Shown here: one piece after another, positions 11,445 through 34,857 of the stretch
Layout of the letters: each line of letters begins with the position of its first letter
Numbering within the stretch: the stretch's first letter is position 1
Assembly: GCA_049719805.1 (NCBI GenBank)
Contig: JBNARF010000002.1
Span: forward strand, 275,495 to 339,494
Direction of reading: 5' to 3'
Length of the DNA: 64,000 bases
DNA from: Candidatus Hydrothermia bacterium
GTDB taxonomy: Bacteria; Hydrothermota; Hydrothermia; UBA1063
The notes under the pieces: model-generated
The model's database searches: none
What the model was told of the DNA's origin: nothing
What the model saw: the letters and a program-made list of their open reading frames with translations, nothing else
Program-made: the position numbers and the translations under genes

Positions 11445-12770
11445 TTATTTCTCCATCTTCCTGAAAAACTCTGAAATAATGTCCTCTAAGTCTGGCTTTC
11501 CAATTTCCTGCAATTCATATTTCACTCTTACATATGGTTTGTTGATTTTTAGTATTTTTCCGAGATTTATTGGCGTTGCAACGATTACGAGGTCTGCAGG
11601 TACTGCATTTATGGTATCTTCCAGTTCTTTAAGCTGCTTAGGTGAATATCCCATGGCCGGCAGAATTACTTCAAGTTGGGTGTATTTTTCGTAGGTTTCC
11701 TTGATGGAACCCACTGCGTAAGGCCTTGGATCCACTATTTCGGATGCGCCGTACTTCTCTGCAGCCACATAACCAGCACCATAAGCCATTTCACCGTGGG
11801 TCAATGTGGGTCCATCTTCGATTACCAGGACTCTTTTGCCTTTTATTTTTTCGTGGTCTTCCACAAATATAGGAGATGCCGCTTCTATTATGGTGGCGTG
11901 TTTGTTAGCGGATCTGGCATTCTCTCTGACTACCTGGATGTCTTCAGGATATGCTGTTTCTACCTTATTGATAATAATAACGTTGGCCATTCTTAGGTTT
12001 GTTTCACCTGGATGATATGTCACCTCATGTCCTGGCCTATGAGGGTCTGCTACTACAATATGTAGATCGGGTTTAAAGAACGGGAAGTCATTGTTTCCAC
12101 CGTCCCACAAAATTACATCAGCTTCCTGCTCTGCCTGTCTTAATATTTTCTCGTAATCAACCCCTGCGTAGACCACGTTGCCACGGTCAATGTGGGGTTC
12201 GTACTCTTCTCTTTCTTCAATGGTGCAGTTGTGTTTGTCCAGGTCTTCATGGGAAGCAAACCTCTGAACCACTTGCTTTGTAAGGTCGCCATAAGGCATA
12301 GGATGCCTGATTACCACGGTCTTTTTACCAAGTTTTTTCAGGATCTCTGCTACCTTTCTGGTAGTTTGACTTTTACCAGAGCCAGTTCTGACAGCGCAGA
12401 CAGATATTACAGGTTTTGAGGATTTGAGCATAGTGTGATCGGGACCCAGGAGCATGAAGCTGGCTCCAGCTGCCATGGCTCTTGATGCCCTATTCATTAC
12501 ATACTCATGGGAAACATCTGAATATGCAAAAACTACAAAATCAATTTTATGCTTTTTTATGAGCTCTTCGAGCTCATCCTCATGATATATGGGTATTCCG
12601 TCAGGATATAGCTTTCCTGCAAGCTCAGCAGGATATTTACGGCCAGCTATGTCCGGTATCTGTGTCGCGGTGAAGGCAACGACTTCATATTCTTCGTTAT
12701 CCCTAAAAAATACGTTGAAATTATGAAAATCTCTTCCGGCAGCCCCCATTATCAAAACTTTTTTCCTCAT
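11445..12770 (-). CDS. P-loop NTPase with N-terminal Rossmann-like domain; tentatively cyclic 2,3-diphosphoglycerate synthetase-like family (uncertain)
   Basis: 441 aa; N-terminal VLIMGAAGRDFHNF, internal MobB-like Walker A (CAVRTGSGKSQTT) followed by VVIRHP; family assignment from memory only. Confidence 0.3.
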   Translation of the reverse strand: MRKKVLIMGAAGRDFHNFNVFFRDNEEYEVVAFTATQIPDIAGRKYPAELAGKLYPDGIPIYHEDELEELIKKHKIDFVVFAYSDVSHEYVMNRASRAMAAGASFMLLGPDHTMLKSSKPVISVCAVRTGSGKSQTTRKVAEILKKLGKKTVVIRHPMPYGDLTKQVVQRFASHEDLDKHNCTIEEREEYEPHIDRGNVVYAGVDYEKILRQAEQEADVILWDGGNNDFPFFKPDLHIVVADPHRPGHEVTYHPGETNLRMANVIIINKVETAYPEDIQVVRENARSANKHATIIEAASPIFVEDHEKIKGKRVLVIEDGPTLTHGEMAYGAGYVAAEKYGASEIVDPRPYAVGSIKETYEKYTQLEVILPAMGYSPKQLKELEDTINAVPADLVIVATPINLGKILKINKPYVRVKYELQEIGKPDLEDIISEFFRKMEK

Positions 12771-14195: not shown

Positions 14196-16634
14196 ATGGG
14201 AAATGATAAAAAAGTTGTGAAAAAACCCCAAAAAGAAGCAAGCATCAAAACGTTAATGTTGAAGCCATATATTGTTTTTTTAGTTTATCTGGTGCTAACT
14301 CTGTTTGTTCTTGGGCCCTTTCTGTCCCCCTCTAAGAACCTTATGGGTACAGATTGGTTTAATGGAGGATATGCTAATTGGGCCTTTATGCGCGACTACA
14401 TCAAGGAAAATGGCAGGCTTGCACTCTGGAACATTTATATTTTTTCGGGTATGCCTACCATCGGGGCATTTTTCCCCGAAATTTTGACTCTCAGATTTTT
14501 GAGCACCTTTTTGATTCCCATTCACGCGGCACACGCTCTCGGGTTTATTCTTCTCTTACTGGTTGCGAGTCTTTCCATGTATTTTCTCCTTGTTGAGCTC
14601 TACGGTGAAAATTTAAGTGCTTTTCTTGGTGGCCTTTTTTATGGTTTTTCTGCAGTTCTTGTCTCTACTGCCTATGCCGGGCACCTGGGGAGGCTTACCA
14701 GCATGGCTCTATTCCCCCTCTACGTGGGGCTTTTAAAGAAGGGCATAGATTCAGGAAAACTCAAATGGTTCATTTTAATGGGAGCCTCGGTAGGCATCTC
14801 CTTTCTCAACGGTCATCCACAGATGTCCTATTACGGCGTCCTGTTTTTAGTTGCGTTTTTCATATTTTATAACCTCAACGTGGGTAATAATCTCAAATCT
14901 CAAAAATTTTATAAATATCTCGCATTTTCAATAATTGGTGCTGTGGTAGCGGTTTTGATTTATAGCTTTTATCTTCTCCCTGTTTTTGAAAATTTACCAT
15001 ATACAGCAAGGGGGGCAGAAAGGGGTTATGAATATGCTGTTAGCTGGTCTATGCCTCCTGAAGAGATTTTAAATCTTCTAACACCCAGGTTTTCTGGAAT
15101 ACTAGATGAATACTGGGGCAGGAGTTATTTTAAGTTACATTCAGAATACATGGGGATTATAACTCTTGTGCTTGCACTTTTAAGTATTGTCTATAAGTTT
15201 AAAAATGACAGGCTGGTAAGGTTTTTGACCATATATAGTATTTTTGTGCTTCTTTACGTTTTTGGAGGATACACCCCCTTTTTCAAAGTGTACTATTACA
15301 TTCTTCCCATGGTCAAAAAGTTCAGGGCTCCTAATTTAATGTTTTTTGTGTTTAACTTTATAAACGTGCTCCTTGCCGTCTCCCTTTTAAGGGATGCAAT
15401 AAAAGGCGACCTTGATTTAAAGCGATTTAAAAGAAGCGTCCTTTACGTTCTTGGGTCTTTAGTGGGGCTTTTCCTCATTTTTGTGATTTTTAAAAGTGGA
15501 TTCATAAATCTTTTCTCGGGTCTTTTGAAACGTGCAAAAGAGGTAACAAACCCCCAGGGTAGAATGTACCTTCTTGAGGATAATTACAACAGTTTCATTT
15601 CTATGTTCTTTGTCTCTTTAATCTTTGGTAGTGTTGGAGTTCTCCTTACTTATTTTATACTTACTAAAAAAGAAGCCCGTTTGACATTGATTTCCCTGGC
15701 TCTCGTATCATTTTTAGATCTCTACCTCGTAGATAAAAATTTCGTTGTGGATGCAGGAAAATCGGTGGATGAAATGTACGGCTCTGATGAAATCATTAAT
15801 GAAATCAAAAAAGATAGTGGTTTATTTAGAGTTTTTCCTCTCATGTATCCAAGGGCGAATGATGGGACTTTAATGATCCACAGAATTCAGTCCATAGGCG
15901 GATATACCAGTTCACCTCCCAGAAGATATCAGGAATTTATAGGTGCTGGAGAAAGTGTGATGTTTAATCCCCAGAATCTTTTAGAGAAACCCTCTTTACT
16001 TAACCTTCTTGATGTAAAATACGTTATTGCTTACAATTTTGATGCCATTGACACCACCAGGTTTGACGAAAATACGAGAGCTGTTGTAAGAAAATGGAAA
16101 GAGTATTTATCTTATTTTGAGCTGTGGAAACCTCTCGGGCAGTTTGCATTGTATAAAAACAACAATAACTTTGGTCGTGTCTTCTTTGTAAATCATTACA
16201 AAGTGGTGAAAGACCCGAAAGAGGCTCTGGATCATGTTATTTCACTCCCCGTTGATTCCCTGAGAAAGATGGTGATTTTGGAAAAAGATCCAGGTGTTCT
16301 TGATTCTTTAAAATATGACTCCCTGGAAAACAATGTAAATATAGAAGTTGAGAAATATGATGCTAATGAAATTATTTTACACGTAAACCTGCCAGGCCCT
16401 GGTTTTCTTGTATTTTCAGAGAATTATCATCCTGCCTGGAAATGCTATGTAGATGGCAAAATGACAGAGGTTCTCGTTGCCAATTATGCTTTCAGGGCAT
16501 GTTATTTACCGGAAGGGTCTCATGTTGTAAAGATGAAGTTTGATTCCGTTTATCATAAGATGGGATTTATTCTCTGCTTTTTAGGCTTTCTAGTTTCGGC
16601 TACAGCCCTGGCCTTTGTTTTCAAGAAAGAATGA
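14196..16634 (+). CDS. Large polytopic membrane protein, YfhO-like (putative membrane glycosyltransferase)
   Basis: 812 aa; many N-terminal TM helices, large central soluble domain, single C-terminal TM helix (GFILCFLGFLVSATALAFVF), matching YfhO-type topology. Confidence 0.4.
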   Translation: MGNDKKVVKKPQKEASIKTLMLKPYIVFLVYLVLTLFVLGPFLSPSKNLMGTDWFNGGYANWAFMRDYIKENGRLALWNIYIFSGMPTIGAFFPEILTLRFLSTFLIPIHAAHALGFILLLLVASLSMYFLLVELYGENLSAFLGGLFYGFSAVLVSTAYAGHLGRLTSMALFPLYVGLLKKGIDSGKLKWFILMGASVGISFLNGHPQMSYYGVLFLVAFFIFYNLNVGNNLKSQKFYKYLAFSIIGAVVAVLIYSFYLLPVFENLPYTARGAERGYEYAVSWSMPPEEILNLLTPRFSGILDEYWGRSYFKLHSEYMGIITLVLALLSIVYKFKNDRLVRFLTIYSIFVLLYVFGGYTPFFKVYYYILPMVKKFRAPNLMFFVFNFINVLLAVSLLRDAIKGDLDLKRFKRSVLYVLGSLVGLFLIFVIFKSGFINLFSGLLKRAKEVTNPQGRMYLLEDNYNSFISMFFVSLIFGSVGVLLTYFILTKKEARLTLISLALVSFLDLYLVDKNFVVDAGKSVDEMYGSDEIINEIKKDSGLFRVFPLMYPRANDGTLMIHRIQSIGGYTSSPPRRYQEFIGAGESVMFNPQNLLEKPSLLNLLDVKYVIAYNFDAIDTTRFDENTRAVVRKWKEYLSYFELWKPLGQFALYKNNNNFGRVFFVNHYKVVKDPKEALDHVISLPVDSLRKMVILEKDPGVLDSLKYDSLENNVNIEVEKYDANEIILHVNLPGPGFLVFSENYHPAWKCYVDGKMTEVLVANYAFRACYLPEGSHVVKMKFDSVYHKMGFILCFLGFLVSATALAFVFKKE

Positions 16635-17548
16635 AAAAGACCCTGTCAGTATTTTTTAAGGCTTTACAGATAGTTCTCGTCTTAGCCCTTCTTATCTACG
16701 TCCTTCTTCCTCTTTTTAGAAATGCAGGTGCGTTTAAAAATACGCTTTTAACCCTTAAACCCGTCCCTTTTTTCTTTGGAGTTATTATTCTATGTCTTGT
16801 TATTTTATGTTATCCTTTTATCTGGCGAAGCATCCTTAAAAGTCTTGGTTTTGAAATTGATTCAAGAACTTCATTGACATCATGGATTTACTCAAACATA
16901 GGTAAGTACATTCCGGGAAAAATATGGCAGTTTGTGGGAAGGTCCGCTCTAACAAAAGAGGTGAGACCAGAAATTACCTTGTTTACTGTTTTCCTCGAAG
17001 TAGCTATTTCCTTTTCTGCCGCGATTATGGTTTTTTTTCTCAGATTTTTAATAGTAAAAAACCTTCCCGTACTCTGGCTTTTGTACGCTACAACGCTGTT
17101 TTTGTTACTAATTGGAATTCAGCACCCGAAAATAATTCAGTTTTGTTTACGGCTCCTATATAAAATAAGAAAACAGGATGAAAATTTTGCCAACTATTCA
17201 TTGTCTCTGAAAAATAACATGATACTTTTTGGTGTTTATTTTGTTCTCTGGATTCTTACCGGATTCTCCTTTTGGGTCATGGTACAGGGCTCGGAAATAA
17301 AGGTCAGCCTCGTGGATGCTGTAACCACATACCCTATTTCCTGGATTTTAGGTTATTTATTTTTAATTGCACCAGCGGGACTCGGTGTAAGAGAAAGTAT
17401 TCTAATGACTTTGCTTAAGGGATATTATCCAGATCATGTGGCATCGGCCTTTTCGATAATTACAAGAATTGCTCTTGTAATTTCGGATTTTTTTCTGTTT
17501 TTTGTGGTTTGGTTATTTAACAATTTTTTATGCAAAAGGGAACGATAG
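16631..17548 (+). CDS. Polytopic membrane protein, flippase-like (lysylphosphatidylglycerol-synthase TM-region-like)
   Basis: 305 aa, ~8 TM helices; 4-nt overlap with upstream YfhO-like gene. Confidence 0.35.
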   Translation: MKKTLSVFFKALQIVLVLALLIYVLLPLFRNAGAFKNTLLTLKPVPFFFGVIILCLVILCYPFIWRSILKSLGFEIDSRTSLTSWIYSNIGKYIPGKIWQFVGRSALTKEVRPEITLFTVFLEVAISFSAAIMVFFLRFLIVKNLPVLWLLYATTLFLLLIGIQHPKIIQFCLRLLYKIRKQDENFANYSLSLKNNMILFGVYFVLWILTGFSFWVMVQGSEIKVSLVDAVTTYPISWILGYLFLIAPAGLGVRESILMTLLKGYYPDHVASAFSIITRIALVISDFFLFFVVWLFNNFLCKRER

Positions 17549-18207
17549 AGAAGTTATTTGATGTTCTTTTCGAGCATTTTGGGCCTCAAAACTGGTGGCC
17601 CGGTGATTCACCCCTTGAAATAATTGTGGGAGCAGTTCTCATGCAGAATACTGCTTGGAAAAATGTTGAAAAAGCGATAACAAACTTGAAAGAAAAGGGT
17701 CTTTTAGATGTTGAAAAAATACTGGGGATTGAGGATTCTTACCTTGCTGAAATTATAAAACCCAGTGGGTTCTATAATCTTAAGGCGAAAAGGTTGAAAT
17801 CGGTGCTTAAGTTTGTAAAAAATAATCGCGGGATTGAGGTGATTTCAGGGAAAGAAAAACACGAATTACGAAGTGAGCTCCTTAAAATTCCGGGAGTGGG
17901 AAAAGAAACAGCGGATTCTATAATACTTTACGCTTTGGGTAAGCCTATTTTTGTAGTGGATGCTTATACCCGCAGGATCTTAAAGAGAATTGGTATAATA
18001 GATGACGAAAATATGAGCTACGACGAAATTCAAAAACTATTTCACGAAAACCTTCCTAATGATGAGAAACTTTTTAACGAGTTTCACGCGTTATTTGTGG
18101 CCCTCGGGAAAAAGTATTGTTTAAAGAGAAATCCGTTATGTAACCTCTGCCCTGTCAAAAGTTATTGTAAATATGGGAGGGAATTTAGTGGTTCGAACGG
18201 GAATTGA
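17530..18207 (+). CDS. HhH-GPD base-excision DNA glycosylase (endonuclease III-related) with [4Fe-4S] cluster loop
   Basis: 225 aa; VLMQNTAWKNVEKAI region, helix-hairpin-helix (LLKIPGVGKETADSIILYA), C-terminal C-x6-C-x2-C-x5-C (CLKRNPLCNLCPVKSYC). Confidence 0.7.
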   Translation: MQKGTIEKLFDVLFEHFGPQNWWPGDSPLEIIVGAVLMQNTAWKNVEKAITNLKEKGLLDVEKILGIEDSYLAEIIKPSGFYNLKAKRLKSVLKFVKNNRGIEVISGKEKHELRSELLKIPGVGKETADSIILYALGKPIFVVDAYTRRILKRIGIIDDENMSYDEIQKLFHENLPNDEKLFNEFHALFVALGKKYCLKRNPLCNLCPVKSYCKYGREFSGSNGN

Positions 18208-19360
18208 TAACATTAATAGATTTTGGCCAAAAGCGCTGAAAAGAGCTAGGATTGGCCTTCTGGCTCATTCCGCTTCGGTTAGCAGTAACTTGAAGTATTC
18301 ATGGGATGTATTGAGGGATGAAAACCTGGCAGAACTGGTGGCAATTTTTGGACCACAACATGGACTTTTTGGTGAGACCCAGGCCAATATGGTGGAGTGG
18401 GAAGGTTATAAGGATCCTGTTACAGGCTTGTACATTTACAGTCTTTACGGAAAAAACAGAAAGCCGACAAAGGAAATGCTTGAAGGAATTGATGGCATAG
18501 TTATTGATCTTCAAGATGTGGGTTCTCGCTACTATACCTACATATGGACCATGTACTTGGTTATGGAAGCTTGCCTTGAGAATAAGAAGTTTGTTGTGGT
18601 TCTTGATAGACCCAATCCAATTAGTGGCATTTCCGTTGAGGGGCCTGTCTTAAAGGAGGAATATTCTTCCTTTGTGGGTCTAAAACCCCTTCCTATAAGG
18701 CACGGAATGACCATAGGAGAAATAGCATTATACTTTAAAGAGACTTTTCTTAAAGATCTTGAACTTCATGTTATAAGAATGACGGGATGGAAGCGTGGCT
18801 TTTTCTGGTCAGATACAGGATTGGAATGGGTAAATCCTTCACCCAATATGCCTTCCGAGAAAACTGCTCTTCTATATCCCGGTATGTGCCTTCTTGAGGG
18901 CACTAATTTAAGTGAAGGAAGGGGCACTACAAGACCCTTCGAAATTTTTGGTGCACCTTTTATAGACCCCTTTAAACTTAGCGAAAAATTGAATTCCCTT
19001 AAATTAGATGGAGTTTTCTTTAGACCCCTTTACTTCATCCCGAGTTTTGACAAATTTAAAGGCGAGAGATGTGGTGGCATACAGATTCATATTCTGGATA
19101 AGAGAAAAATAAAACCCTTTAAGGTCGGAGTTGCAGTACTTATGACCGTTATGAGTATGTATCCTGAAGGTTTCAGTTGGTCTTCCGGTCCATATGAATA
19201 TGAGTTTGAAAAGAAACCGATAGACATTCTTGCGGGGACAAGTCGTTTAAGGGAAGCACTGGAAAGGGGAGAGCCTCTGAAAAAACTGGAAGAGTGGTGG
19301 AATCAAGAATCAAAGGAATTTGATGAGCGGGTAAGAAAAAAGTATCTTCTTTATGAGTGA
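18173..19360 (+). CDS. DUF1343-family protein (NamZ-like exo-beta-N-acetylmuramidase)
   Basis: 395 aa; DUF1343 signatures (GLLAHSASV, FGPQHG, DRPNP); start may be an internal Met since the ORF overlaps the upstream gene. Confidence 0.65.
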   Translation: MGGNLVVRTGIDNINRFWPKALKRARIGLLAHSASVSSNLKYSWDVLRDENLAELVAIFGPQHGLFGETQANMVEWEGYKDPVTGLYIYSLYGKNRKPTKEMLEGIDGIVIDLQDVGSRYYTYIWTMYLVMEACLENKKFVVVLDRPNPISGISVEGPVLKEEYSSFVGLKPLPIRHGMTIGEIALYFKETFLKDLELHVIRMTGWKRGFFWSDTGLEWVNPSPNMPSEKTALLYPGMCLLEGTNLSEGRGTTRPFEIFGAPFIDPFKLSEKLNSLKLDGVFFRPLYFIPSFDKFKGERCGGIQIHILDKRKIKPFKVGVAVLMTVMSMYPEGFSWSSGPYEYEFEKKPIDILAGTSRLREALERGEPLKKLEEWWNQESKEFDERVRKKYLLYE

Positions 19361-21230
19361 GCTATATATCCTTGTTTTATCCGCTGGATTCGGTGAACGC
19401 CTCAGACCTATTACTTACTCTATTCCCAAGGTTCTTTTACCTGTACTTGGCAAACCCCTCCTTATCAGGGTCCTTGATAATTTAAAAAAGTTTTTCCCGC
19501 GCTCAGAAGTTTACGTAAACTTGCACCATCTTGCTGAAAAAGTAAGCAGAAGTTTAAAGGAATTTTACCCTGAAGTTATTACCGTTTACGAGCCTCAGAT
19601 ATTAGGAACAGGTGGAGGAATTGTTAATGTTTCAAAAATCTCCCGTGGAGATAATATCCTGGTGCAAAATGGAGATATTCTAACATATTTTGATTTAAGA
19701 GGGTTTTATGAATACCATAAAAAGAATAATTTTGACATTACGCTGGCTATTAGCCAAAAAGTTTCTAAAAAAAATCTGCTGGTAAAAGGCACATTATTTC
19801 AGGGTATAAAGGAGGAAGGGCATACAGGATTTGCCGGCGTTGCTATTTATAACATGGAATTACTTCGGAACATGAGTCTGTATACTTTTGATGCTAAGGA
19901 AGTATGGGAATATTGCATAAGAAGAGGTGGACGTATTGGAGTATTTGACATTGGAGATTCCTTCTGGGTGGATGTGGGTACTCCACAAAGTTACGCCAGA
20001 TTGATACGAAATATATTGCAAAAATATGGCGAAAATGTTTTTATAAATACAACATCTTTGGATTTGCCAGTGGTGGAATTTGACGGCTTTTTCGTGATAG
20101 AAGGGGAACCTCGCCTTATTAAAGGGAGCAAATTCAGGAATGTCATTATTATCGGAGATCCTGAGGTAGAGTTCGGAATTTATGAAAACTGTCTGATTTC
20201 ACCTTCGGGTAAGACTACCTTTAGTGAGATAGAGGTTTTTGGTGGGGTGGGTAATGGGTATGAAACAGGATTTGGAGGATCTGACAGGAAGTTTATAAGG
20301 TTTTTCAAGGGCTCAGGGGAAAGATTAGTGGAATGCCATTTTGGTAATGATAGAGAAAGTTTAGAAAAACATTTAATGGCTTATAATTTACTTTTAAAAT
20401 GCGGCATCCCAGTGGCACGAATTTACAATGTGGATCATAAACGTAATGTTATTCAGATGGAAGATCTCGGAGATGTAACCCTTTATTCTTTTTTGAAGTA
20501 TCCGCCCAACAAAGTTTTTGAGAAAGAATTCTATTTTAAAGGTATTGATTATTTAGCAAGATTACATGCCTTGGGGGTTAAAGAGAAAGAATCGGAATAC
20601 TTTAGAAGGTGGCAATTTGATTACGAGTATTTTCTTTGGGAGCAAAACCATTTTTTCAACAATTTTTTGGAAAGAGTGTTGGGAGTTAAGGCAGGAAATA
20701 GTTTAAAGGAATGTTTGAGCAAAATTGCGGAGATTTCCGCGTCCTTTCCACGAGTTGTTCTGCACAGGGATTTTCAGAGTCAGAATTTAATGGTGGACAG
20801 GATGGGGGGTTTAAGAGTAATTGACTTTGTAGGAATGCGTTGGGGTCCTAAAACTTATGACCTTGTTTCTTTCCTGTTTGATCCCTACAGAGACATAGGA
20901 GAAGAACTAAGAGAGAGCTTAATCAGTTATTATATAGAGCGATATAAAGAGCTAAGTGGTAACAAACTAACTAGAGAAGAAATTGATAAGGAACTCCCTT
21001 ATATCAGGGTCCAAAGACTCCTTCAAGCTCTGGGTGCATACGGATATCTTTCCAGGGTGAAGGGTAAAACATTTTTTGAAAAGTTTTTCTTCCGAGGCGT
21101 GCAACTTCTCATTGATGTCCTAGCTCACAAAGCTTTGCGATGTAAAGAGTTAAATGAATTATTTCTGATTTTAAAAAATGCTTTTCTTGACACTAAGGAT
21201 AATATTGATTATAATATACCAATTGTTTGA
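19353..21230 (+). CDS. Bifunctional sugar-1-phosphate nucleotidyltransferase (MurU/LicC-like) / APH-fold kinase (AmgK/LicA-like)
   Basis: 625 aa; N-terminal NTP-transferase motifs (LVLSAGFGERLRP, GTGGG); C-terminal phosphotransferase Brenner motif (VVLHRDFQSQNLMV) and DFVGM metal-binding loop. Confidence 0.6.
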   Translation: MSELYILVLSAGFGERLRPITYSIPKVLLPVLGKPLLIRVLDNLKKFFPRSEVYVNLHHLAEKVSRSLKEFYPEVITVYEPQILGTGGGIVNVSKISRGDNILVQNGDILTYFDLRGFYEYHKKNNFDITLAISQKVSKKNLLVKGTLFQGIKEEGHTGFAGVAIYNMELLRNMSLYTFDAKEVWEYCIRRGGRIGVFDIGDSFWVDVGTPQSYARLIRNILQKYGENVFINTTSLDLPVVEFDGFFVIEGEPRLIKGSKFRNVIIIGDPEVEFGIYENCLISPSGKTTFSEIEVFGGVGNGYETGFGGSDRKFIRFFKGSGERLVECHFGNDRESLEKHLMAYNLLLKCGIPVARIYNVDHKRNVIQMEDLGDVTLYSFLKYPPNKVFEKEFYFKGIDYLARLHALGVKEKESEYFRRWQFDYEYFLWEQNHFFNNFLERVLGVKAGNSLKECLSKIAEISASFPRVVLHRDFQSQNLMVDRMGGLRVIDFVGMRWGPKTYDLVSFLFDPYRDIGEELRESLISYYIERYKELSGNKLTREEIDKELPYIRVQRLLQALGAYGYLSRVKGKTFFEKFFFRGVQLLIDVLAHKALRCKELNELFLILKNAFLDTKDNIDYNIPIV

Positions 21231-21250: not shown

Positions 21251-23050
21251 ATGTTTAAGACAAGTGGACCAGATTTCAAAAAAATTAAGCTCGAAGCCCA
21301 AAAGCTCATTGGGCAGGGTAAATATCAGGAAGCGTTAAATAAGTTAATAGAACTAAGCAAGCAGATCAGCGACCCAGAAGTTTACAATTCTATTGGCGAC
21401 CTCTATATCAGGTTCCAGAATAATGAGCAAGCCCTTCAATATCTCGAAAAAGCATACAAAATCTACAGAGAGCAGGATTTCAGAGAGATAGCTATTTCTG
21501 TGGCTAAGAAAATTCTTCGTATCGAAAAGGATAGGCATGATATTTACATTGATTTGGTTGAAATGGAAATGGAGAACGGTAATGTGGATAAAGCCCTTGA
21601 TTGGGCATTGGAGTTTGTAAAGCTACCTAACCCTGATCCTAGCTATGTGGGTAAGCTTTTTAGATTATTAAATGATATAGCTAATGAAATTCAGGAGAAT
21701 ACAGAACAGGCGACAAAATTCGAGAGACTCTTCATTAAATTGCAAGAGCTTGCGGAGCAGCTCTCTTTAGCTACCCTTGAGTCAGGAATTGAAATTGCGG
21801 ATGCAAAGGAATTTTTTGATAAAGGAGATTTTGAAGAATACGGTGGATTTTTTGATGCGGGTCACCCAGCTGAAGAAGCGAAGATTAAGAAAACCACCAG
21901 AAAGAAGGAAGAGCAAGAACCTGTTGAAAAGATAGAATTTTTTGAACAAGAAGAGGAAGAGAAAAGTTTTATAACTGCTTCTGGATTTTCCAATTTTCTT
22001 GAAGTGGAGAAATCTGATAATATTGAAAAAACCGTTCTGGAAGAGAAACCTACATCTTCTCATAAGTCAGAAGAAAGTGTGAAATTCGAGATTTCTGAGA
22101 AAACTGAGTTTGTAGAAGAAACTGAAGAAAAATTGGATTTGTTACCCCCTGAATCCAAGAGCGTCTCGGATAAGAGGCCGCCATCTGAGCAGTTTAAAAC
22201 AGTTTTAGAGGAAGAGCTTCCAGAGGAAATCGAGGCAGAACAAAAGGTATGGGAATCATTGACATCAAAAAAAATCACCGAACAGAAGCCGGTTCCTGAA
22301 GTAACAAGCAGTAAAGAATCTTCAGCTGAAGAGGAGGAACCTGAAAAACTCAGGGTGGCTTTTGACGAGTATGTGAAACTGAAAGAAGAGGAGAAAAAAG
22401 TCACTTTTGATGAGGTTGTAAGCGAGAAATTTAAGAGTGAATCAAAGGAAGAACCGAAACTGGAGCAAAAACCGACTGAGGGGGGAGTTCTCGAAAAAGT
22501 TGTAAAAGAGTCAACAACTGAGAAATTCTCCAAGGAGTTTAAGTCTTCCGTTTTTCAGGAAAAAGAAGCAGCACCCGCTGTAGTGCAGAAACCTAGAGAA
22601 TTTAGTGAAGCTATGTCAGATTTACTAAAGATTATAAGAGATTTCAAAGAAGATCTTGTTGGTTTAGAGACGTGGCCTTACTCTTCCGATTCTCCCTTTG
22701 AAGTTGCAAAAGAATATTACGAAATGAAGCTCTATCAGCCAGCAGTCGAAGAATTCCAGAAGCTTCTAGGAGACCCCAGATACAGGCTTCAATCAATGAC
22801 TTATTTAGGAAAGATATTCTATGAAAGGGGTGAGTTAGATTTTGCCGAGGCAATACTCAGGAAGGCTATCGAAGAAGCTGGATATATGGAGAAGGAATCC
22901 ATTGAGGCTTACTATTATCTTGCCCTAACCCTTGAGGCGCTTAAGCGTTTTATGGAAGCAAAAGAATTATATTTGAGGGTGTATATATTCGATTCAAGTT
23001 TTAGGGATGTTGCTGCAAAAGTAATGACATTAAGGAGTAAAGCACTATGA
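21251..23050 (+). CDS. Hypothetical protein: TPR-like helical termini flanking a long acidic/Lys-rich low-complexity region
   Basis: 599 aa; TPR-like N- and C-terminal segments, central ~300 aa rich in E/K/S/T; stop overlaps the next gene's start (ATGA). Confidence 0.45.
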   Translation: MFKTSGPDFKKIKLEAQKLIGQGKYQEALNKLIELSKQISDPEVYNSIGDLYIRFQNNEQALQYLEKAYKIYREQDFREIAISVAKKILRIEKDRHDIYIDLVEMEMENGNVDKALDWALEFVKLPNPDPSYVGKLFRLLNDIANEIQENTEQATKFERLFIKLQELAEQLSLATLESGIEIADAKEFFDKGDFEEYGGFFDAGHPAEEAKIKKTTRKKEEQEPVEKIEFFEQEEEEKSFITASGFSNFLEVEKSDNIEKTVLEEKPTSSHKSEESVKFEISEKTEFVEETEEKLDLLPPESKSVSDKRPPSEQFKTVLEEELPEEIEAEQKVWESLTSKKITEQKPVPEVTSSKESSAEEEEPEKLRVAFDEYVKLKEEEKKVTFDEVVSEKFKSESKEEPKLEQKPTEGGVLEKVVKESTTEKFSKEFKSSVFQEKEAAPAVVQKPREFSEAMSDLLKIIRDFKEDLVGLETWPYSSDSPFEVAKEYYEMKLYQPAVEEFQKLLGDPRYRLQSMTYLGKIFYERGELDFAEAILRKAIEEAGYMEKESIEAYYYLALTLEALKRFMEAKELYLRVYIFDSSFRDVAAKVMTLRSKAL

Positions 23051-24288
23051 TGAAGAAGGATTTAAAAGTTGAAGAAAAACCTCAAGGTAAGGTTACCTTC
23101 GTGGAGCTTCTTGAAAAGAGCGGCATCATTTCCAAAGAGGCCATTAAAGCTGCCCTTGCTGAGCAATGGGAGAGAGGGGGAACTTTAGAAGAGATTCTCG
23201 TTGAAAAGGGATACTTAAACGAGGAACAATTTGTTAAATTTATACTTGATAAATTTCCTATGCTACATTATGTGAGCTTGAAAGATATAGATATTGATAC
23301 TGAAGCTGTTGAACATATCCCAGCCAGAATTGCTAAGAAGTACTTACTGATCCCGGTTAGAAAGAAGGGGAAATCCTTAGCTGTGACCATGGCAAATCCC
23401 TTAAATAAAGAAATGCTCATCGAACTGAAAAACGTTACAGATTTGAAAATTAGACCATTTGTTTCAAAGATTTCGGAGATAAAGGAAGCCATTGCTAAGT
23501 ATTACGGAGAGATTGGAGAAGCAGAGGAAATTCCAGAACCTTTCACTGCAGATAAAGTTAAGAAAGAGATTGGAGTCCTGATAGCAAAGGATAAAACCTT
23601 TGAAAATTTCGTGGTCGGGGAAACTAATAAGCATGCCTATTTGCTTTGCGCAGATATTGCAAAAACTCGAGGAGTTGGAGAGAAGCGGCTTTTCATATGG
23701 GGGCCAGAAGGTACGGGGAAAACTCATCTTCTTCAAGCTATTGCGAACTACCTTTTAGAGAATGAAGCTCTAAGGAGATTCATATACATTGATGCTATAA
23801 AGTTTGTTACAACCCTGAAGGGTTTTAAGTCAGAGCGCGAGGTGGATCGGTATTTAAAAATTCTTACAGATCTTGATTTACTTCTCTTTGATGACTTAGA
23901 CTTTCTAATAGGTAAGGATTATGCTCAAGAGGCTTTATTTTCAGTGCTTTCTGAATTAAGAATGACCGATAAACAAGTGGTAATATCCTCATCATATCCG
24001 ATGAAGGATATGCCTACTTTGAGCGTAAAAGTAAAATCTTTAATTTCTGAATTCCTTGTAGTTGGAATGGATGAGCCCTCCGTGGAGCTTAAAAGGGACA
24101 TTGTAAAAAGATTTTTGCAGGAAGAATCACTTCCCTCTGGTGTAGTTGAGTTTCTTGTAAAGAAGCCTGGTTTAACAGTTAAAAAGATTGAATCTATTGT
24201 TCGCACATTGCTCACTTACAAGAGGATAGGAGAGAAAATTGATGAAAATCTTTTAAATAAGGTGGTTTCAGGGATTATTGAAAGTTAA
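23047..24288 (+). CDS. Fusion protein: N-terminal GspE-N (T2SSE_N/MshEN-like) domain + DnaA/Hda-like AAA+ ATPase domain, no DnaA domain IV
   Basis: 413 aa; residues ~15-155 match the GspE/PilB N-terminal domain pattern; residues ~180-400 match DnaA domain III: FVVGETNKHAY, Walker A WGPEGTGKTHLL, Walker B LLLFDDLDFL. Confidence 0.6.
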   Translation: MMKKDLKVEEKPQGKVTFVELLEKSGIISKEAIKAALAEQWERGGTLEEILVEKGYLNEEQFVKFILDKFPMLHYVSLKDIDIDTEAVEHIPARIAKKYLLIPVRKKGKSLAVTMANPLNKEMLIELKNVTDLKIRPFVSKISEIKEAIAKYYGEIGEAEEIPEPFTADKVKKEIGVLIAKDKTFENFVVGETNKHAYLLCADIAKTRGVGEKRLFIWGPEGTGKTHLLQAIANYLLENEALRRFIYIDAIKFVTTLKGFKSEREVDRYLKILTDLDLLLFDDLDFLIGKDYAQEALFSVLSELRMTDKQVVISSSYPMKDMPTLSVKVKSLISEFLVVGMDEPSVELKRDIVKRFLQEESLPSGVVEFLVKKPGLTVKKIESIVRTLLTYKRIGEKIDENLLNKVVSGIIES

Positions 24289-24302: not shown

Positions 24303-25922
24303 ATGGCTTTGTTAGGTCAACTGGGTTTGGGAGCTAAGGGCAAAACGAAAGGGAGCATAGTAGCCCTTGATATAGGTTCAAAATATGTAAAAGCTGCGTT
24401 ATTTGAGAGAAGGAAGAACGAGTTAGTGTTTAGGGGACTAGCTGTGGAAAAGGTCCCACCCGATGTGATCCTGGGTAAAGATATAATCGACCGGCAGGTT
24501 CTGGTAGATAAGATAAGGGATGCTTACTCCAAGCTTGGCACTGAAGTTAGAGATGTGGTGGTGAACGTAGCCGGTGGTGAGGTGAAAACTAAGGCCTTCG
24601 TTATACCTGACCTAAAGAAAAAAGAAAAGATAGCGGAGGCAGTGGACTGGAAGATAAAGGATGAGTTGCACGTGGATCCTACCGAGATAGTCAGGGATTA
24701 CGAACTTCTTGGAAAAAGCGAAGTGAGTGAGTCTCTGGATATGCTTGTGGGTACTGCCAAGTTGAGTGTGGTTTATGATATCATGGATATTGTGAGGGCT
24801 GCAAGACTTGAGCCTATAATGGTTACAACCGATCTCCTGGCCCTTTGGAGAGTTATTGAGGCCCTCGATTTAAAAGACCTTCCTGGAGATAACGTATTTT
24901 TCCATCTGGGTTACGAAGTGGGACTCCTAATTCATGTTAAAGATGGCAAGATCCAACAGATGATCGAAGTCCCAGCGGGTTTAAAATCATATGTGGATAA
25001 CTTATCCAGATTCTTTGACCTAAGAGTAGAAGAGGCCGAAGAAATTGTTATAAATGGCCCTACTTCCGGTATTGATAAAGTTTCTTTTGATGAGACTGTT
25101 GATTCGCTCCATGAGAGGTTTCTTTCGCCTGAAAAATATATACCTTTACTTGGTGAGCCAGGTGTTAAATTTAATTTATACATCTCTGGTGGTGGAAGTA
25201 AATTATACGGTGTAAGTGCTTTTGTTAAGAATAAGTATGGTGTCGATCTTAAATTCATAGATGTCTCAACCTTGTTTGCAGTTGAAGAACCTGTAAAGGG
25301 TATCAAAGATTATTTAAACTTACTAACTATAGTAATTGGTGATGCACTTCATTATTTCAGGAAAGGGCACAAGATAAACTTAATGCCTCAAGAAGCAGGG
25401 ATGGAAGCAGTAGCGGTTGAGGGTGAGGTTTCTTTATTACCTCATGTGGTGGGGGCACTCTCAATATGGCTTGTAATTGTCATTGTAATTGCTGTGCTGT
25501 CCATCGGAACCTCAAGGAGGATTTCAGGGCTTAAGAATCAAATAGCCAGGTTACAGGCTGAAGAGGTGGAACTTCAGAGAAAAGCTGACGAAATCAGGGG
25601 ATTTAAACAAGAAATTGAAGACGCCAGGCGAAAATTGGATCTTATTCAGCAGCTTCAAATGGGTAGAACGGTTTATGTAAGACTTCTCGATGAAATAAAC
25701 AGGGTTCTTCCCTCCGGGTGCTGGCTCGAGTCTGTAAGAAAAAGTGGTAGTTATCTTAATGTTTCTGGAGGAGCCCTTTCAAATATTAGAATATCTCAAT
25801 TTATGTCTAATCTCAAAAAGTCAGATGTAGTTGATTCTGTATACCTCCAGTCCATTGAAGTCTCTGGGGGTAGTCAACAAGAAAGATATGCAAGGTTTGA
25901 AATTAATGTTAAACTGAAATAA
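24303..25922 (+). CDS. pilM: Type IV pilus assembly protein PilM fused to PilN-like TM/coiled-coil/periplasmic region
   Basis: 539 aa; actin-like PilM N-terminus (IVALDIGSKYVKAA), then TM helix (ALSIWLVIVIVIAVLSIG), coiled coil and periplasmic domain as in PilN. Confidence 0.65.
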   Translation: MALLGQLGLGAKGKTKGSIVALDIGSKYVKAALFERRKNELVFRGLAVEKVPPDVILGKDIIDRQVLVDKIRDAYSKLGTEVRDVVVNVAGGEVKTKAFVIPDLKKKEKIAEAVDWKIKDELHVDPTEIVRDYELLGKSEVSESLDMLVGTAKLSVVYDIMDIVRAARLEPIMVTTDLLALWRVIEALDLKDLPGDNVFFHLGYEVGLLIHVKDGKIQQMIEVPAGLKSYVDNLSRFFDLRVEEAEEIVINGPTSGIDKVSFDETVDSLHERFLSPEKYIPLLGEPGVKFNLYISGGGSKLYGVSAFVKNKYGVDLKFIDVSTLFAVEEPVKGIKDYLNLLTIVIGDALHYFRKGHKINLMPQEAGMEAVAVEGEVSLLPHVVGALSIWLVIVIVIAVLSIGTSRRISGLKNQIARLQAEEVELQRKADEIRGFKQEIEDARRKLDLIQQLQMGRTVYVRLLDEINRVLPSGCWLESVRKSGSYLNVSGGALSNIRISQFMSNLKKSDVVDSVYLQSIEVSGGSQQERYARFEINVKLK

Positions 25923-31284: not shown

Positions 31285-34200
31285 GTGATAATTATGTTTA
31301 AAAAAAGGTGGTTATTTGGTACATTAATGATTATAGTGGGGGCACTCATGGCTCAAACCACTGAGATGCCCTGCAACGTTCCGCCGTTTTTGGCGGAGAA
31401 AATTCCGCCGAATATCTTAGTTATTATGGACAATTCTGGTTCTATGGGTGAAATGGCATATAATGAGCCTTATAACCCTAACAAAAAATACTATGGCTAT
31501 TTTAATCCCGATGCAGTTTATCGTTATGACAACAATGAATGGGTTCCTGTAGATCAAAGTGCAAACTTTAATACCACCTGGCCTGGAAACCTCTTGAACT
31601 GGGCAATTATGTCACGTTTCAGTGTTTTAAAGAAAGTTCTTGTGGGTGGAAAGGCAACGGCACGAAGCCCCAGGGGATTTGCCCACACCCTGATTTGTGA
31701 GTCACGCAATTCCTGGGATAAATATTACACATATGGCGGAAGTAAATACCGTTTTACCGTTTCCGGTGGAAGTGCTGGATCTGCGAGTAGTATAGTAATA
31801 AGGAGATGGACAGGAAGGAATTGGGTGCAACTGCTTTCTGCAACTAATAAAGTTGCAATCGACTCAACCTTCTCCCGAGGTGTTATTCAGAAGCTTGGTG
31901 ATAAGGATATAGATGGCAGATGGGATGATGACACTCCGAGATTCTGGCTAATAATGTTTAATAGCAGAGGGAATAACAGTGAAATGGGGTCAGGTAGTAC
32001 AACCCCAGTAAATGTCAGCGGGGAACACGATGGCGGTCGTGTGGAGTCTTATTATCAGGATAACAATTCAATGAGTGATTTTGTTAATGCCATTCAGAAT
32101 GCCAAAGCAGAGACCTGGACCCCCCTCGCTGAATGTTTACTTGAGACATGCTGGTATTTTAGACAAGTTCCCACACCTCTTTTCTTCCCTAATGACTACG
32201 GGACGGACCGGCAATGGGATCCTATGGAGCCTAAGAGTGTATGGTGCCGAAAGTCTTTTGTGCTCTTTTTGACCGACGGCCAGGCAACGAGAGATAGAGA
32301 TCCCGTTTTGCATCAGCATATAGGTGATTACGATGGTGACGGAATGGAACCATCGTTTTATCAGGGTGTAGATGATCCACAGTTCAGCAGCCATTACCTT
32401 GATGATGTAGCCTTTTGGATGCATACCAACGATCTGAGACCTGATATCCCGGGGACCCAGAACCTCACCCTTTATGGTGTCTTTGTTTTTGGATATGGGC
32501 ACGATCTTTTAAAAGAAGCCTGTAAAGATGGCGGATTCATCGATTACAATGGTAACAATAGACCTGACCTTACGAGAGAGTGGGATCATAATGAAGACGG
32601 AGTTCCCGATACATATTTCGAGGCACAGGAGGGAGAGCAGATCGAAAAGGCTATTATGGATGCGATACTCTCTATTTTAGCGAGGGTAAGTTCAGCTACG
32701 GCTGCATCTGTGGTCACTCAGACCCAGAGAGGTGAAGGAACTATATATCAGGCCTTTTTCCAGCCCACTTACACTACGCCTCTGGGCGAGATAAAATGGC
32801 TTGGACAATTGGTGGGCTACTTTGTTGATAAAAATGGAAATATTAGAGAAGATAGCAATAATGATTTAAGACTCACTAGTGATGACCGTATTTTGAAATT
32901 TAAGACTGAAGGAATTGAAACCAGAGTTGAGAGATGGGCTGCCACTTCTGATGATAATCCCCTTTACAAGGTTGATGAAGTAGACCTCTGGGATGTTAAT
33001 TTCCTCTGGGATGCTGGCAAAAGATTACTGGAAAGAAGCGCTGACGAGCGGATTATAAAAGCAATAATTAAACAGAATAACACATTTGCTCTCATAGATT
33101 TCAAAACCAATAACAGGAGCCTTCTCAGCTCTTACATGGAAGGTTCTGATGCCTTCAAGGACTCTTTAATAAATTACATTAGAGGTGTTGATTATAATAA
33201 TCCCAGCTGGCGATCCAGGACATTTGAGCCGAATAAGGTCTGGAAACTTGGTGATATAGTCTACTCTACGCCGACTTTTGTTGGAAGACCGACGGAAAGG
33301 TATGATCTCATATATGATGATGTATCTTACAGGGAATTTTACAACCGGAAGAAGAACAGGCGAAACATAGTCCTTGTTGGCGCCAACGATGGAATGCTCC
33401 ATGCGTTTAATGCCGGTATTTTTGATACACTTGAAAGAAGGGTAGATGGAATGGGTAGGAGTTTGGGTGAAGAATTGTGGGCAGTTATTCCTATGAACCT
33501 CCTTCCCCATTTGAAATGGCTGAAGGATCAGCAATATTGCCATGTTTACTATGTTGACCTTAAACCAAAAGTTACAGACGTAAAGATATTTAGTGATGAT
33601 GAGGATCATCCTGAAGGCTGGGGTACTGTCGCCATCGTAGGAATGAGATTTGGAGGAACTCCAATATCCATATCCAGTGGCACGTATAGGTCTGCTTTCT
33701 TTGCTCTTGACATTTCTAACCCAGATAATCCCCGGGTGTTGTGGGAGTTTACAGATCCCAATCTTGGTTATACTATTTCCTATCCCTCTGTTTTGAAAGT
33801 TGTGGATCAGAACGGTGAAAAGTGGTTCGTTGTTTTTGGTTCTGGAACCACAACTACCCCCACAGGACACACTTCCAATCAAAATGCTTATTTCTATATC
33901 CTTGATCTTAAGACGGGAGCCCTTTTAAGAAAGATACAGATACCATATCCTTCAAATCAGACGCAAGGTGCGTTTTGTGGTAATCCCATCTCCGTGGACG
34001 TTAAGCTGGATTACAGTTGTGATATAATCTATTTACCTGTTACATATATTGAAAGATCAGGTAATACAAATATAGAAAAGGGTGCTCTTTACAGGATAGT
34101 AACTGGCAATAGTACAAATCCGCAAGCCTGGTCCCTCTCCATGGCGATAAGACTAGATAGGCCAGTAACCTCAGGGACTGCCGCTTCCATGGACGAATAT

Positions 34201-34857
34201 GGTAATTTATGGGTATTCTTTGGGAGCGGGAAGTACTTTACAGACCAGGATGAGATTGATTCAAGGACCAATTATCTTCTAGGATTTAAGGATCAGTACT
34301 GGAATGGTGGTTGGACAAGTGCTACCTCTCCAAGCTATGCCCTTTCAGATCTTCTCAATGCAACTAATATTAATGTAAGAGTTGACACTTCCACTGGCAG
34401 TGCCACTGTTGAAAACGTACAAGGCCTTCCAAATAATTTATCTTTCGAAGCCTTTGTGGATTCTGTTAATAGAAGATATAAGGGGTGGTATGTGGAGCTC
34501 CAGAGTGGTGAAAAGTCCCTTAATTTCCCATTAGTTCTTGGCGGTGCTGTATTTTTCACCACCTATAAGGTTATTGATGACCCTTGTGCTTTTGGTGGTC
34601 AGGGATGGCTCTATGTACTCTATTACAAGACTGGAACAGCATCTAAAAATGCGCCCCTGGGTTTACTACAGAACAATTACGCTGCCACCAAGGTTGAAGT
34701 ACAGGGTATGCCTGCTTCTCCTGCAGTTCACATAGGATCAAGGGATGAGGCAAGGGCGGTGGTTCAGACCTCAACTGGCGAGATTATTTCCATGCCCGTG
34801 GAACTTCCCTGGAGTCCGAAGAGCGGTGCAAGGGTCTGGAGACCCGCAAACTTTTAA
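31285..34857 (+). CDS. PilY1/PilC-like pilus tip adhesin with N-terminal vWA (MIDAS) domain
   Basis: 1190 aa; signal peptide; MIDAS motif VIMDNSGSM near the N-terminus; large C-terminal region consistent with a PilY1 beta-propeller; follows four minor pilin genes. Confidence 0.65.
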   Translation: MIIMFKKRWLFGTLMIIVGALMAQTTEMPCNVPPFLAEKIPPNILVIMDNSGSMGEMAYNEPYNPNKKYYGYFNPDAVYRYDNNEWVPVDQSANFNTTWPGNLLNWAIMSRFSVLKKVLVGGKATARSPRGFAHTLICESRNSWDKYYTYGGSKYRFTVSGGSAGSASSIVIRRWTGRNWVQLLSATNKVAIDSTFSRGVIQKLGDKDIDGRWDDDTPRFWLIMFNSRGNNSEMGSGSTTPVNVSGEHDGGRVESYYQDNNSMSDFVNAIQNAKAETWTPLAECLLETCWYFRQVPTPLFFPNDYGTDRQWDPMEPKSVWCRKSFVLFLTDGQATRDRDPVLHQHIGDYDGDGMEPSFYQGVDDPQFSSHYLDDVAFWMHTNDLRPDIPGTQNLTLYGVFVFGYGHDLLKEACKDGGFIDYNGNNRPDLTREWDHNEDGVPDTYFEAQEGEQIEKAIMDAILSILARVSSATAASVVTQTQRGEGTIYQAFFQPTYTTPLGEIKWLGQLVGYFVDKNGNIREDSNNDLRLTSDDRILKFKTEGIETRVERWAATSDDNPLYKVDEVDLWDVNFLWDAGKRLLERSADERIIKAIIKQNNTFALIDFKTNNRSLLSSYMEGSDAFKDSLINYIRGVDYNNPSWRSRTFEPNKVWKLGDIVYSTPTFVGRPTERYDLIYDDVSYREFYNRKKNRRNIVLVGANDGMLHAFNAGIFDTLERRVDGMGRSLGEELWAVIPMNLLPHLKWLKDQQYCHVYYVDLKPKVTDVKIFSDDEDHPEGWGTVAIVGMRFGGTPISISSGTYRSAFFALDISNPDNPRVLWEFTDPNLGYTISYPSVLKVVDQNGEKWFVVFGSGTTTTPTGHTSNQNAYFYILDLKTGALLRKIQIPYPSNQTQGAFCGNPISVDVKLDYSCDIIYLPVTYIERSGNTNIEKGALYRIVTGNSTNPQAWSLSMAIRLDRPVTSGTAASMDEYGNLWVFFGSGKYFTDQDEIDSRTNYLLGFKDQYWNGGWTSATSPSYALSDLLNATNINVRVDTSTGSATVENVQGLPNNLSFEAFVDSVNRRYKGWYVELQSGEKSLNFPLVLGGAVFFTTYKVIDDPCAFGGQGWLYVLYYKTGTASKNAPLGLLQNNYAATKVEVQGMPASPAVHIGSRDEARAVVQTSTGEIISMPVELPWSPKSGARVWRPANF

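Follow-up and report, generated by a model that had tools for sequence, protein, structure and literature searches.

Two adjoining genes were analyzed in a stretch of 64,000 nucleotides from a Candidatus Hydrothermia bacterium (assembly GCA_049719805.1, contig JBNARF010000002.1, positions 275,495 to 339,494; the whole stretch is called the window here), and together they probably form a cytoplasmic cassette that salvages N-acetylmuramic acid (MurNAc), as well as N-acetylglucosamine (GlcNAc), to UDP-sugars. The upstream gene encodes a NamZ-like protein (DUF1343, glycoside hydrolase family 171 or GH171), and the downstream gene encodes one polypeptide in which a MurU-like sugar-1-phosphate nucleotidyltransferase is fused to an AmgK-like kinase. 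In the proposed route the NamZ-like enzyme, which is placed in the cytoplasm because it carries no signal peptide, would remove the terminal MurNAc from imported fragments of the MurNAc-beta-1,4-GlcNAc type. At the expense of ATP, the C-terminal AmgK-like domain would then place a phosphate on the anomeric hydroxyl of MurNAc and probably also on that of GlcNAc, after which the N-terminal MurU-like domain would join the sugar-1-phosphate to a nucleotide, most likely UTP, to give UDP-MurNAc for MurC. UDP-MurNAc made in this way would bypass MurA and MurB. We infer all three steps from the family assignments, the catalytic motifs, the single-chain fold and the adjacency of the genes. The original prediction had proposed the same MurNAc-salvage function, and it is backed by the kinase, by the nearness of the transferase to MurU and by the pairing with NamZ in five phyla; a glutamine at a proposed catalytic position, the missing signal peptide and some unusual parts of the transferase fit it less well.

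The two open reading frames (ORFs) and their 8-nt overlap were found as predicted, on the same strand and with products of 395 and 625 aa. The predicted fusion of a transferase with a kinase also held, as Pfam placed NTP_transferase at residues 7-134 (E 3e-16) and APH at residues 332-529 (E 5e-18) of the 625-aa protein, the homologues have the same order, and the motifs SAGFGERLRP and HRDFQSQN were located at residues 10-19 and 471-478. Homologues of ~620 aa with identical domain order are present in at least 573 GTDB species, a lower bound obtained by scanning one genome per species. The lineages that carry them include Nitrospirota/Thermodesulfovibrionia, Thermodesulfobacteriota (among them the cultured Thermodesulfobacterium hveragerdense), Verrucomicrobiota, Hydrogenedentota, Elusimicrobia, Fibrobacterota, Rokubacteria, Syntrophia and Krumholzibacteriia. 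The fusion is a large family, neither rare nor confined to the genome of the window, and it is annotated generically, under public names such as "phosphotransferase" or "sugar phosphate nucleotidyltransferase".

An AlphaFold model of the 625-aa protein was built on 45 homologues, and the same 45 members were used for the residue and profile counts given below. The model is compact (predicted local distance difference test, pLDDT, 93.4; predicted template modelling score, pTM, 0.91) and is composed of an alpha/beta nucleotidyltransferase, an all-beta segment and a kinase, whose limits are given in Table 1. As homologues of the same order are abundant and the model is confident, an artefact of gene calling or assembly was excluded. 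Weak hexapeptide matches were seen for the beta-helix segment in relatives and none for the window protein's own segment; this short helix would hold both catalytic domains in a rigid arrangement.

The kinase half is clearly AmgK-like by profile, structure and motif comparisons, and the original assignment is thereby borne out. The AmgK models were the sole specific kinase matches in NCBIfam (79 and 40 bits, the next family being Bud32 with 22 bits), model NF045759 was covered from position 24 to 320 of 324 at 79 bits, and all 45 members of the fused family match the AmgK models. Among all solved structures only 3csv gave a significant match (E 4e-16), and it is the lone kinase within the top 50 fold matches of the model; 3csv was assigned to the AmgK family because its sequence scores 225 bits on an AmgK model. 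The next solved kinases were cyclin-dependent kinases (E 0.017), choline kinase (4r77, 0.35) and hygromycin kinase (0.43), so that the kinase half is not of the choline or aminoglycoside kinase type.

As references served the AmgK/MurU gene pairs of Legionella, Aeromonas and Bacteroides, together with the AmgK of Neisseria, all taken from chromosomes and from replicons filed in a plasmid collection. Two of the replicons filed as plasmids, NZ_CP119142.1 of Neisseria gonorrhoeae (L085, 2.17 Mb) and NZ_AP026896.1 of Aeromonas caviae (L088, 4.94 Mb), are evidently chromosomes. The kinase half aligns end to end with all four AmgK references at 25-28% identity and has in common with them the N-lobe motif S/D-x-R-R/K-F/Y-x-R, HRDxxxxN, IDF and a C-terminal QR...G...GK helix; within the fused family the catalytic-loop motif HRDFQSQN and IDF (490-492), which holds the metal-binding Asp, are invariant in 45/45 members. 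Kinetics have been measured for the AmgK of L. pneumophila, and AmgK/MurU of T. forsythia are functional in E. coli. The kinase half scores 77-79 bits, below the NCBIfam AmgK equivalog cut-off of 550, and AmgK-type proteins encoded beside MurU also remain below it (Legionella 263, Aeromonas 182, Bacteroides 64). As AmgK/MurU-type pairs of these three genera fall short too, the NCBIfam cut-offs were judged to be narrow, and they were dropped as a membership test since known-type pairs fail it.

The transferase domain appears to work like MurU, with UTP as its most likely nucleotide. MurU was the top NCBIfam model with 78.5 bits (cut-off 250), followed by a mannose-1-phosphate guanylyltransferase model with 75.6 bits; the MurU match is full length (residues 6-215 against model positions 3-221 of 226), and the matches to the guanylyltransferase models are not. 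The best single-domain fold match was also MurU (4y7t, template modelling or TM score 0.87, root-mean-square deviation 2.4 A), with HddC at 0.80-0.81. UTP is reported to be held by Asn52 in the MurU of P. putida, a position taken by Ser in HddC and by Val in most transferases (PMC6981941). Asn56, which aligns with Asn52, was seen in 45/45 fused proteins and the Asn also in 3/3 MurU references, and the structures of GDP-mannose pyrophosphorylase (GMPP) have Ala in this column. The G-E-R loop, as in proteobacterial MurU, was found in 39 of the 45 members, most relatives having G-T-R. A Bacteroides MurU-type protein was the best of five references for 44/45 members (median 103 bits, GMPPs 70-75), and the catalytic Lys26 and the metal-binding Asp108 and Asp207 are invariant or nearly so in the family.

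The original prediction had also offered a LicC/LicA-like headgroup activator. Choline or ethanolamine would in that case be phosphorylated and then converted to a CDP derivative. This reading has in its favour that an APH-fold kinase follows a transferase in the identical domain order and that choline kinases belong to the APH superfamily; the fused CTP:phosphocholine cytidylyltransferase/choline kinase LicCA of the spirochaete Treponema has the domain order and both superfamilies of the fused protein. Neither half of the fused protein, however, groups with LicC or LicA in sequence and profile comparisons. LicC (1jyk) scores 23 bits on the transferase half, over the first 60 residues only, which sets the transferase apart from this cytidylyltransferase, and choline kinase has E 0.35 against 4e-16 for the AmgK-family structure. 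Pfam Choline_kinase is absent from the window protein at E<0.01 and marginal in relatives, and the conserved neighbour belongs to a glycosidase family. The LicC/LicA reading is thus close to refuted by the profile and structure scores and was rejected, with next to no chance left to it.

The surroundings of the fused gene were examined in 80 species loci, ~70 of which had upstream sequence long enough to judge. By tblastn, 35 of the 80 loci have a NamZ homologue on the same strand within 500 nt, on the upstream side of the fused gene. In the unsupervised clustering of neighbouring ORFs of these 80 loci NamZ was the sole recurrent neighbour (33 loci, always upstream), and the gap between the two genes in other genomes has a median of 18 nt, always on the same strand. 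The paired lineages are Nitrospirota, where nearly all loci have NamZ directly upstream, Elusimicrobia (1 locus), Krumholzibacteriia (1 locus), Fibrobacterota (1/3) and the WOR-3 lineage of the window, which makes five phyla. Other candidate neighbours (ParA/ParB, metallo-beta-lactamase (MBL) hydrolase, S41 protease, beta-lactamase-like) were set aside as each is confined to 4-6 related genomes, and the same applies to an alpha-amylase-like neighbour that was recognized by eye only. The fused gene of Thermodesulfobacterium, Caldimicrobium, Hydrogenedentales and Syntrophaceae lies among unrelated housekeeping genes.

It may be argued that the two genes are neighbours without a functional link and that the NamZ-like protein acts in an unrelated process, since each gene is found without the other nearby in several phyla. 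Their order, strand and tight spacing or overlap, however, are the same in 35 species loci of four phyla and WOR-3, and no other neighbour is conserved, which makes an accidental arrangement highly improbable. Between the WOR-3 window and the Nitrospirota loci (L004-L049) the NamZ proteins are 54-60% identical and the fused enzymes 31-36%; this unequal conservation suggests different constraints or separate histories.

The NamZ-like protein matches Pfam NamZ_N (5e-83, 277.8 bits, cut-off 26.9) and NamZ_C (2e-55, 188.1 bits, cut-off 25) and the Bacteroides structure 4k05 (E 4e-81). For NamZ of B. subtilis, which has a 23-residue signal peptide, Glu92 at the tip of strand beta2 has been proposed as catalytic from a homology model, and Arg279 lies at the active site (PMC8054146). 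By an alignment offset of 26-30 residues, Gln62 of the window protein would stand at the position of Glu92, and Arg250 (GRGTT) is probably the equivalent of Arg279, likewise by offset. Glutamine was found in 32/32 intact adjacent NamZ proteins that were aligned and in 216/216 homologues from two word-based searches. An exhaustive search of 1.84 billion representatives gave 8,339 members of the NamZ family, and among the best 150 of these the position is occupied by Glu in 107 and by Gln in 36; 33 of 35 Gln-types fall into one neighbour-joining clade with the window protein.

The Gln-type clade has signatures of its own. Of the Gln-type proteins 94% have Asn72, where 100% of the Glu-type show a gap; Glu75 is present in 89% against 4%, and further signatures are Arg96 and a Tyr-Glu insertion near residue 343. 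From these patterns Glu75 may be a compensating catalytic residue. His63, Asp107/112/115, DRPNP, Glu183, Glu242, Glu248 and Arg250 are retained. The original prediction had named a lack of the NamZ catalytic residues as a point that would refute it, and this point applies in part: the proposed catalytic Glu is replaced and nearly all other invariant residues are kept. The proposed Glu may be dispensable, or the chemistry of the clade may be altered. A signal peptide-like N-terminus was found neither in the window protein nor in any Gln-type representative by a crude hydrophobicity test, and the characterised NamZ enzymes are all exported with signal peptides. Among the Glu-type homologues, P0266 (990 aa), P0267 (1544 aa), P0281, P0302 and P0310 are long, signal-bearing, multi-domain proteins with 2-4 matched stretches, which suggests tandem or decorated secreted muramidases. 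P0266, which is Glu-type and has a signal-like N-terminus, is also a candidate for a triple fusion of NamZ, nucleotidyltransferase and kinase.

Several observations weigh against the salvage reading, and the first group concerns the transferase. On the sequences of solved structures it scores 54 bits for GMPP, 50 for HddC and 43 for P. putida MurU. Its L6 loop, E..ILGTGG, is of the HddC/GMPP type, and the Glu of this loop binds guanine in HddC (PMC6981941). The domain is also followed by a beta-helix, which the "minimal" single-domain MurU does not have, and transferase and beta-helix together superpose over ~335 columns on CugP (tlr0611), GMPP and ST0452. The top model (by a narrow margin), the fold, Asn56 and G-E-R speak for a MurU transferase, and because the L6 loop and the beta-helix are of GMPP/HddC type, the use of UTP and strict membership of MurU are kept tentative.

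These features would suit an enzyme that activates another sugar (for instance GlcNAc or N-acetylgalactosamine only, mannose or a heptose), possibly with GTP, so that the NDP-sugar would serve a glycoconjugate. Such a role could also draw on the absence of a neighbouring NamZ from roughly half of the fused-gene loci, and on a YfhO-type glycosyltransferase encoded upstream in the same direction in the genome of the window. Against it, the kinase half resembles AmgK only; the transferase half is like MurU in Asn56, in its G-E-R loop and in its best fold match, with the Bacteroides MurU-type protein ahead of GMPP in 44/45 members; the only conserved neighbour comes from a family whose characterised members all act on MurNAc glycosides; and the YfhO neighbour is not conserved elsewhere. 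We consider the activation of another sugar unlikely.

A second group of adverse points concerns the gene pair. The fused gene has no NamZ directly upstream in Verrucomicrobiota (~25 loci), Thermodesulfobacteriota, Hydrogenedentota and Syntrophia, and around four Gln-type NamZ genes (Aminicenantes, Schekmanbacteria, Acidobacteria and one metagenome-assembled genome, MAG) neither a kinase nor a transferase gene was found within 6 kb. The two genes are thus linked in certain lineages only, and they are a conserved two-gene cassette in some phyla and not an obligate unit. NamZ has been reported to be mostly absent where the AmgK/MurU route exists (PMC8054146), to which a cassette of NamZ and MurU-AmgK would be a counter-example. 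No transporter and no other recycling gene was found within the 64-kb window; murQ, anmK, nagZ, ampG and murA/B are not among its annotated ORFs, which does not imply their absence from the genome.

The last adverse point is Gln62 itself, which replaces the proposed catalytic Glu92 throughout the clade, so that ordinary hydrolase activity is not to be assumed. The clade may instead contain a phosphorylase that yields MurNAc-alpha-1-phosphate, an enzyme for 1,6-anhydroMurNAc or an enzyme with a relocated carboxylate, and the fused enzyme would then mainly serve the co-released GlcNAc and the uridylylation step. Such a change of chemistry would agree with the fixation of Gln in a monophyletic clade (33/35 Gln-types), its co-variation with Asn72, Glu75 and Arg96, the retention of nearly all other invariant residues and the apparently cytoplasmic location of all members. 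Several glycoside phosphorylases arose from hydrolases through loss of the catalytic base, and in the bifidobacterial lacto-N-biose/galacto-N-biose (LNB/GNB) pathway a phosphorylase is paired with the APH-fold anomeric kinase NahK. On the other hand Glu92 is only a proposed catalytic residue, so Gln may be neutral for hydrolysis, and Asp107, Asp112, Asp115, Asp145, Glu183, Glu242 and Glu248 could be the true catalytic residues. A departure from simple hydrolysis is hence quite unlikely, and we regard as very unlikely the more specific proposal that the Gln62 clade is a mechanistically new cytoplasmic enzyme, either a MurNAc-glycoside phosphorylase giving MurNAc-alpha-1-phosphate or a 1,6-anhydroMurNAc hydrolase that replaces AnmK and MupP. 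If that proposal were true, such an enzyme and the fused MurU-AmgK protein would suffice to convert a disaccharide of peptidoglycan to both UDP-sugars with very little ATP spent, and deep-branching phyla would possess a recycling route complete in itself.

The salvage reading places the cassette beside AmgK and MurU of Pseudomonas putida and P. aeruginosa, which with orthologous pairs in Legionella, Neisseria, Aeromonas and Caulobacter make up the anabolic MurNAc recycling shortcut. The likeness lies in an APH-fold kinase with the family motifs, a GlmU/RmlA-fold transferase with G-E-R and the Asn52 equivalent, and the genetic coupling of both activities. Unlike the two genes of the Pseudomonas type, the fused protein is one polypeptide with the transferase first and a beta-helix connector; the reversed order noted in the original prediction is confirmed by the canonical order, amgK then murU, in Legionella and Bacteroides. 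Its halves are 25-34% identical to the Pseudomonas-type references over the aligned regions, with scores far below the NCBIfam equivalog cut-offs, and its L6 loop has LGTGG where the Pseudomonas-type MurU has L-E/D-T-G/A-G.

The nearest references for both halves are of the Bacteroidetes type, represented by the T. forsythia enzymes, which are in use for NAM-probe labelling, and by the pair of Bacteroides finegoldii (L087), which we infer to be orthologous to the tested AmgK/MurU of T. forsythia. The Bacteroides kinase matches the fused kinase half over its full length with 84 bits and 28% identity, and GAYGF and FQS-type motifs are common to both. In Bacteroides, unlike in the fused protein, kinase and transferase are encoded by two genes, the kinase gene coming first, and the kinase carries a RapZ C-terminal domain. 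This B. finegoldii kinase (NZ_OY725912.1, 3944-5374) adjoins the MurU-type gene and is named "RNase adapter RapZ" in RefSeq, apparently a wrong annotation that goes back to its C-terminal domain.

The NamZ-like protein has the two-domain DUF1343 fold and nearly all invariant residues, including the Arg279 equivalent, of NamZ (B. subtilis) and NamZ1/NamZ2 (Tannerella forsythia). Those enzymes carry signal peptides and GPEHG and are either secreted or periplasmic, whereas the clade of the window has no signal peptide, GPQHG and clade-specific insertions. A fused salvage enzyme of another kind is Fkp of Bacteroides fragilis (L-fucokinase/GDP-fucose pyrophosphorylase), in which a pyrophosphorylase at the N-terminus is joined by a beta-helix linker to an anomeric sugar kinase at the C-terminus. 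The layout of the fused protein, a transferase, a left-handed beta-helix and a kinase, resembles by analogy the salvage logic of Fkp in one chain. The kinase of Fkp has the GHMP fold and not the APH fold, acts with another sugar and nucleotide, and is not homologous to the kinase half of the fused protein.

Both families are already in databases under generic names, and the cassette is a variation on the known recycling shortcut and not a new kind of system. A literature search found no described MurU-AmgK fusion, cytoplasmic NamZ clade or operon of both. MurNAc salvage that bypasses MurA/MurB underlies intrinsic fosfomycin tolerance in Proteobacteria and Bacteroidetes. If the salvage reading is true, such a bypass reaches beyond these two groups to Nitrospirota, WOR-3/Hydrothermia, Verrucomicrobiota, Thermodesulfobacteriota and further phyla, most of them uncultured, and there it would be carried by a single-polypeptide enzyme. 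GH171/NamZ would gain a cytoplasmic branch that is tied genetically to the AmgK/MurU route and was not seen in the published distribution analysis, and the Gln-type clade calls the proposed catalytic Glu92 into question. AmgK and MurU have been used to install bio-orthogonal MurNAc probes in bacterial walls and to make UDP-MurNAc derivatives, and a compact bifunctional enzyme from a hot-spring lineage could serve as a reagent, for example as a single-chain tool for MurNAc-probe labelling.

Table 1. Features of the gene pair and of its immediate surroundings, with positions counted along the window
Feature	Position	Strand	Remarks
NamZ-like (DUF1343, GH171) gene	18173..19360	+	395 aa from ATG 18173; Pfam NamZ_N and NamZ_C
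GPQHG motif	18350..18364	+	Gln62 codon 18356-18358, replaces Glu of GPEHG (4k05, 4jja)
Clade-specific segment ETQANMVEWE	18374..18403	+	one-residue insertion Asn72; Glu75
SEGRGTTRPF	18911..18940	+	family-invariant Arg250; conserved among Gln-type and Glu-type representatives alike (at least 85% of both)
Overlap of NamZ stop and fused-gene start, ATGAGTGA	19353..19360	+	8 nt
Bifunctional gene: MurU-like nucleotidyltransferase, beta-helix connector, AmgK-like kinase	19353..21230	+	625 aa
Sugar-1-phosphate nucleotidyltransferase domain	19353..20024	+	residues 1-224; Asn56, Glu80, Asp108, Asp207
G-E-R loop of transferase domain	19380-19409	+	SAGFGERLRP
Asn56 codon	19518-19520	+	aligns with MurU Asn52
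Short left-handed beta-helix connector	20037..20219	+	residues 229-289; all-beta in the model
AmgK-like APH-fold kinase domain	20250..21188	+	residues 300-612
Kinase motifs	GGSDRKFIR 20268-20306; HRDFQSQN 20763-20786; C-terminal QR..QALGAYG...KGK 21000-21086	+	also IDF (Asp491)
YfhO-like membrane glycosyltransferase (812 aa), LPG_synthase_TM-like/flippase-like (305 aa) and EndoIII-like/3-methyladenine glycosylase-like (225 aa) genes	14196..18207	+	stops and starts overlap, continuing into the NamZ gene
Perfect sigma-70 consensus, TTGACA-17 nt-TATAAT	21187..21215	+	within last 45 nt of fused gene, 36 nt ahead of tetratricopeptide repeat (TPR) gene (21251)

The NamZ-like gene probably starts at GTG 18188 rather than at ATG 18173, which gives 390 aa; this start is favoured because public gene calls have 390 aa and because a Shine-Dalgarno-like GGGAGGG lies ahead of it at 18175-18181. 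A near-identical locus (98% identity) is present on a 1.69-Mb contig of a related MAG, and cluster members are labelled Candidatus Hydrothermia, which is the WOR-3 lineage. It is in this species only that the three upstream co-directional genes and the pair may belong to one operon; it would be an odd mixture of envelope genes and a DNA-repair gene, and these genes are not kept beside the pair in other lineages. The sigma-70 sequence near the end of the fused gene, a consensus match only, is the sole 12/12 match in the 10.6 kb scanned and could be where the TPR/pilus unit downstream begins; promoter-like counts in the promoter and terminator scan were no higher than the shuffled expectation.

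Two ORFs of the window have no Pfam or NCBIfam family, one of 441 aa at 11445-12770 (-) and one of 315 aa at 3224-4171 (+); gene calls of the related MAG likewise include the 441-aa ORF, with no domain there either. Between the TPR protein and the pilM/N/O/secretin genes a 413-aa protein (23047-24288, +) combines an N-terminal MshEN-type domain that binds cyclic di-GMP (c-di-GMP) with a DnaA-like AAA+ ATPase, without the DnaA DNA-binding domain, and it may be a c-di-GMP-responsive regulator or an assembly ATPase of the type IV pilus cluster. A single protein of 539 aa (24303-25922, +) unites PilM with PilN; next come genes for PilO, an AMIN domain, a secretin and pilin-like products, and a PilY1-like protein of 1190 aa is encoded at 31285-34857. 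The secretin gene of this cluster implies an outer membrane.

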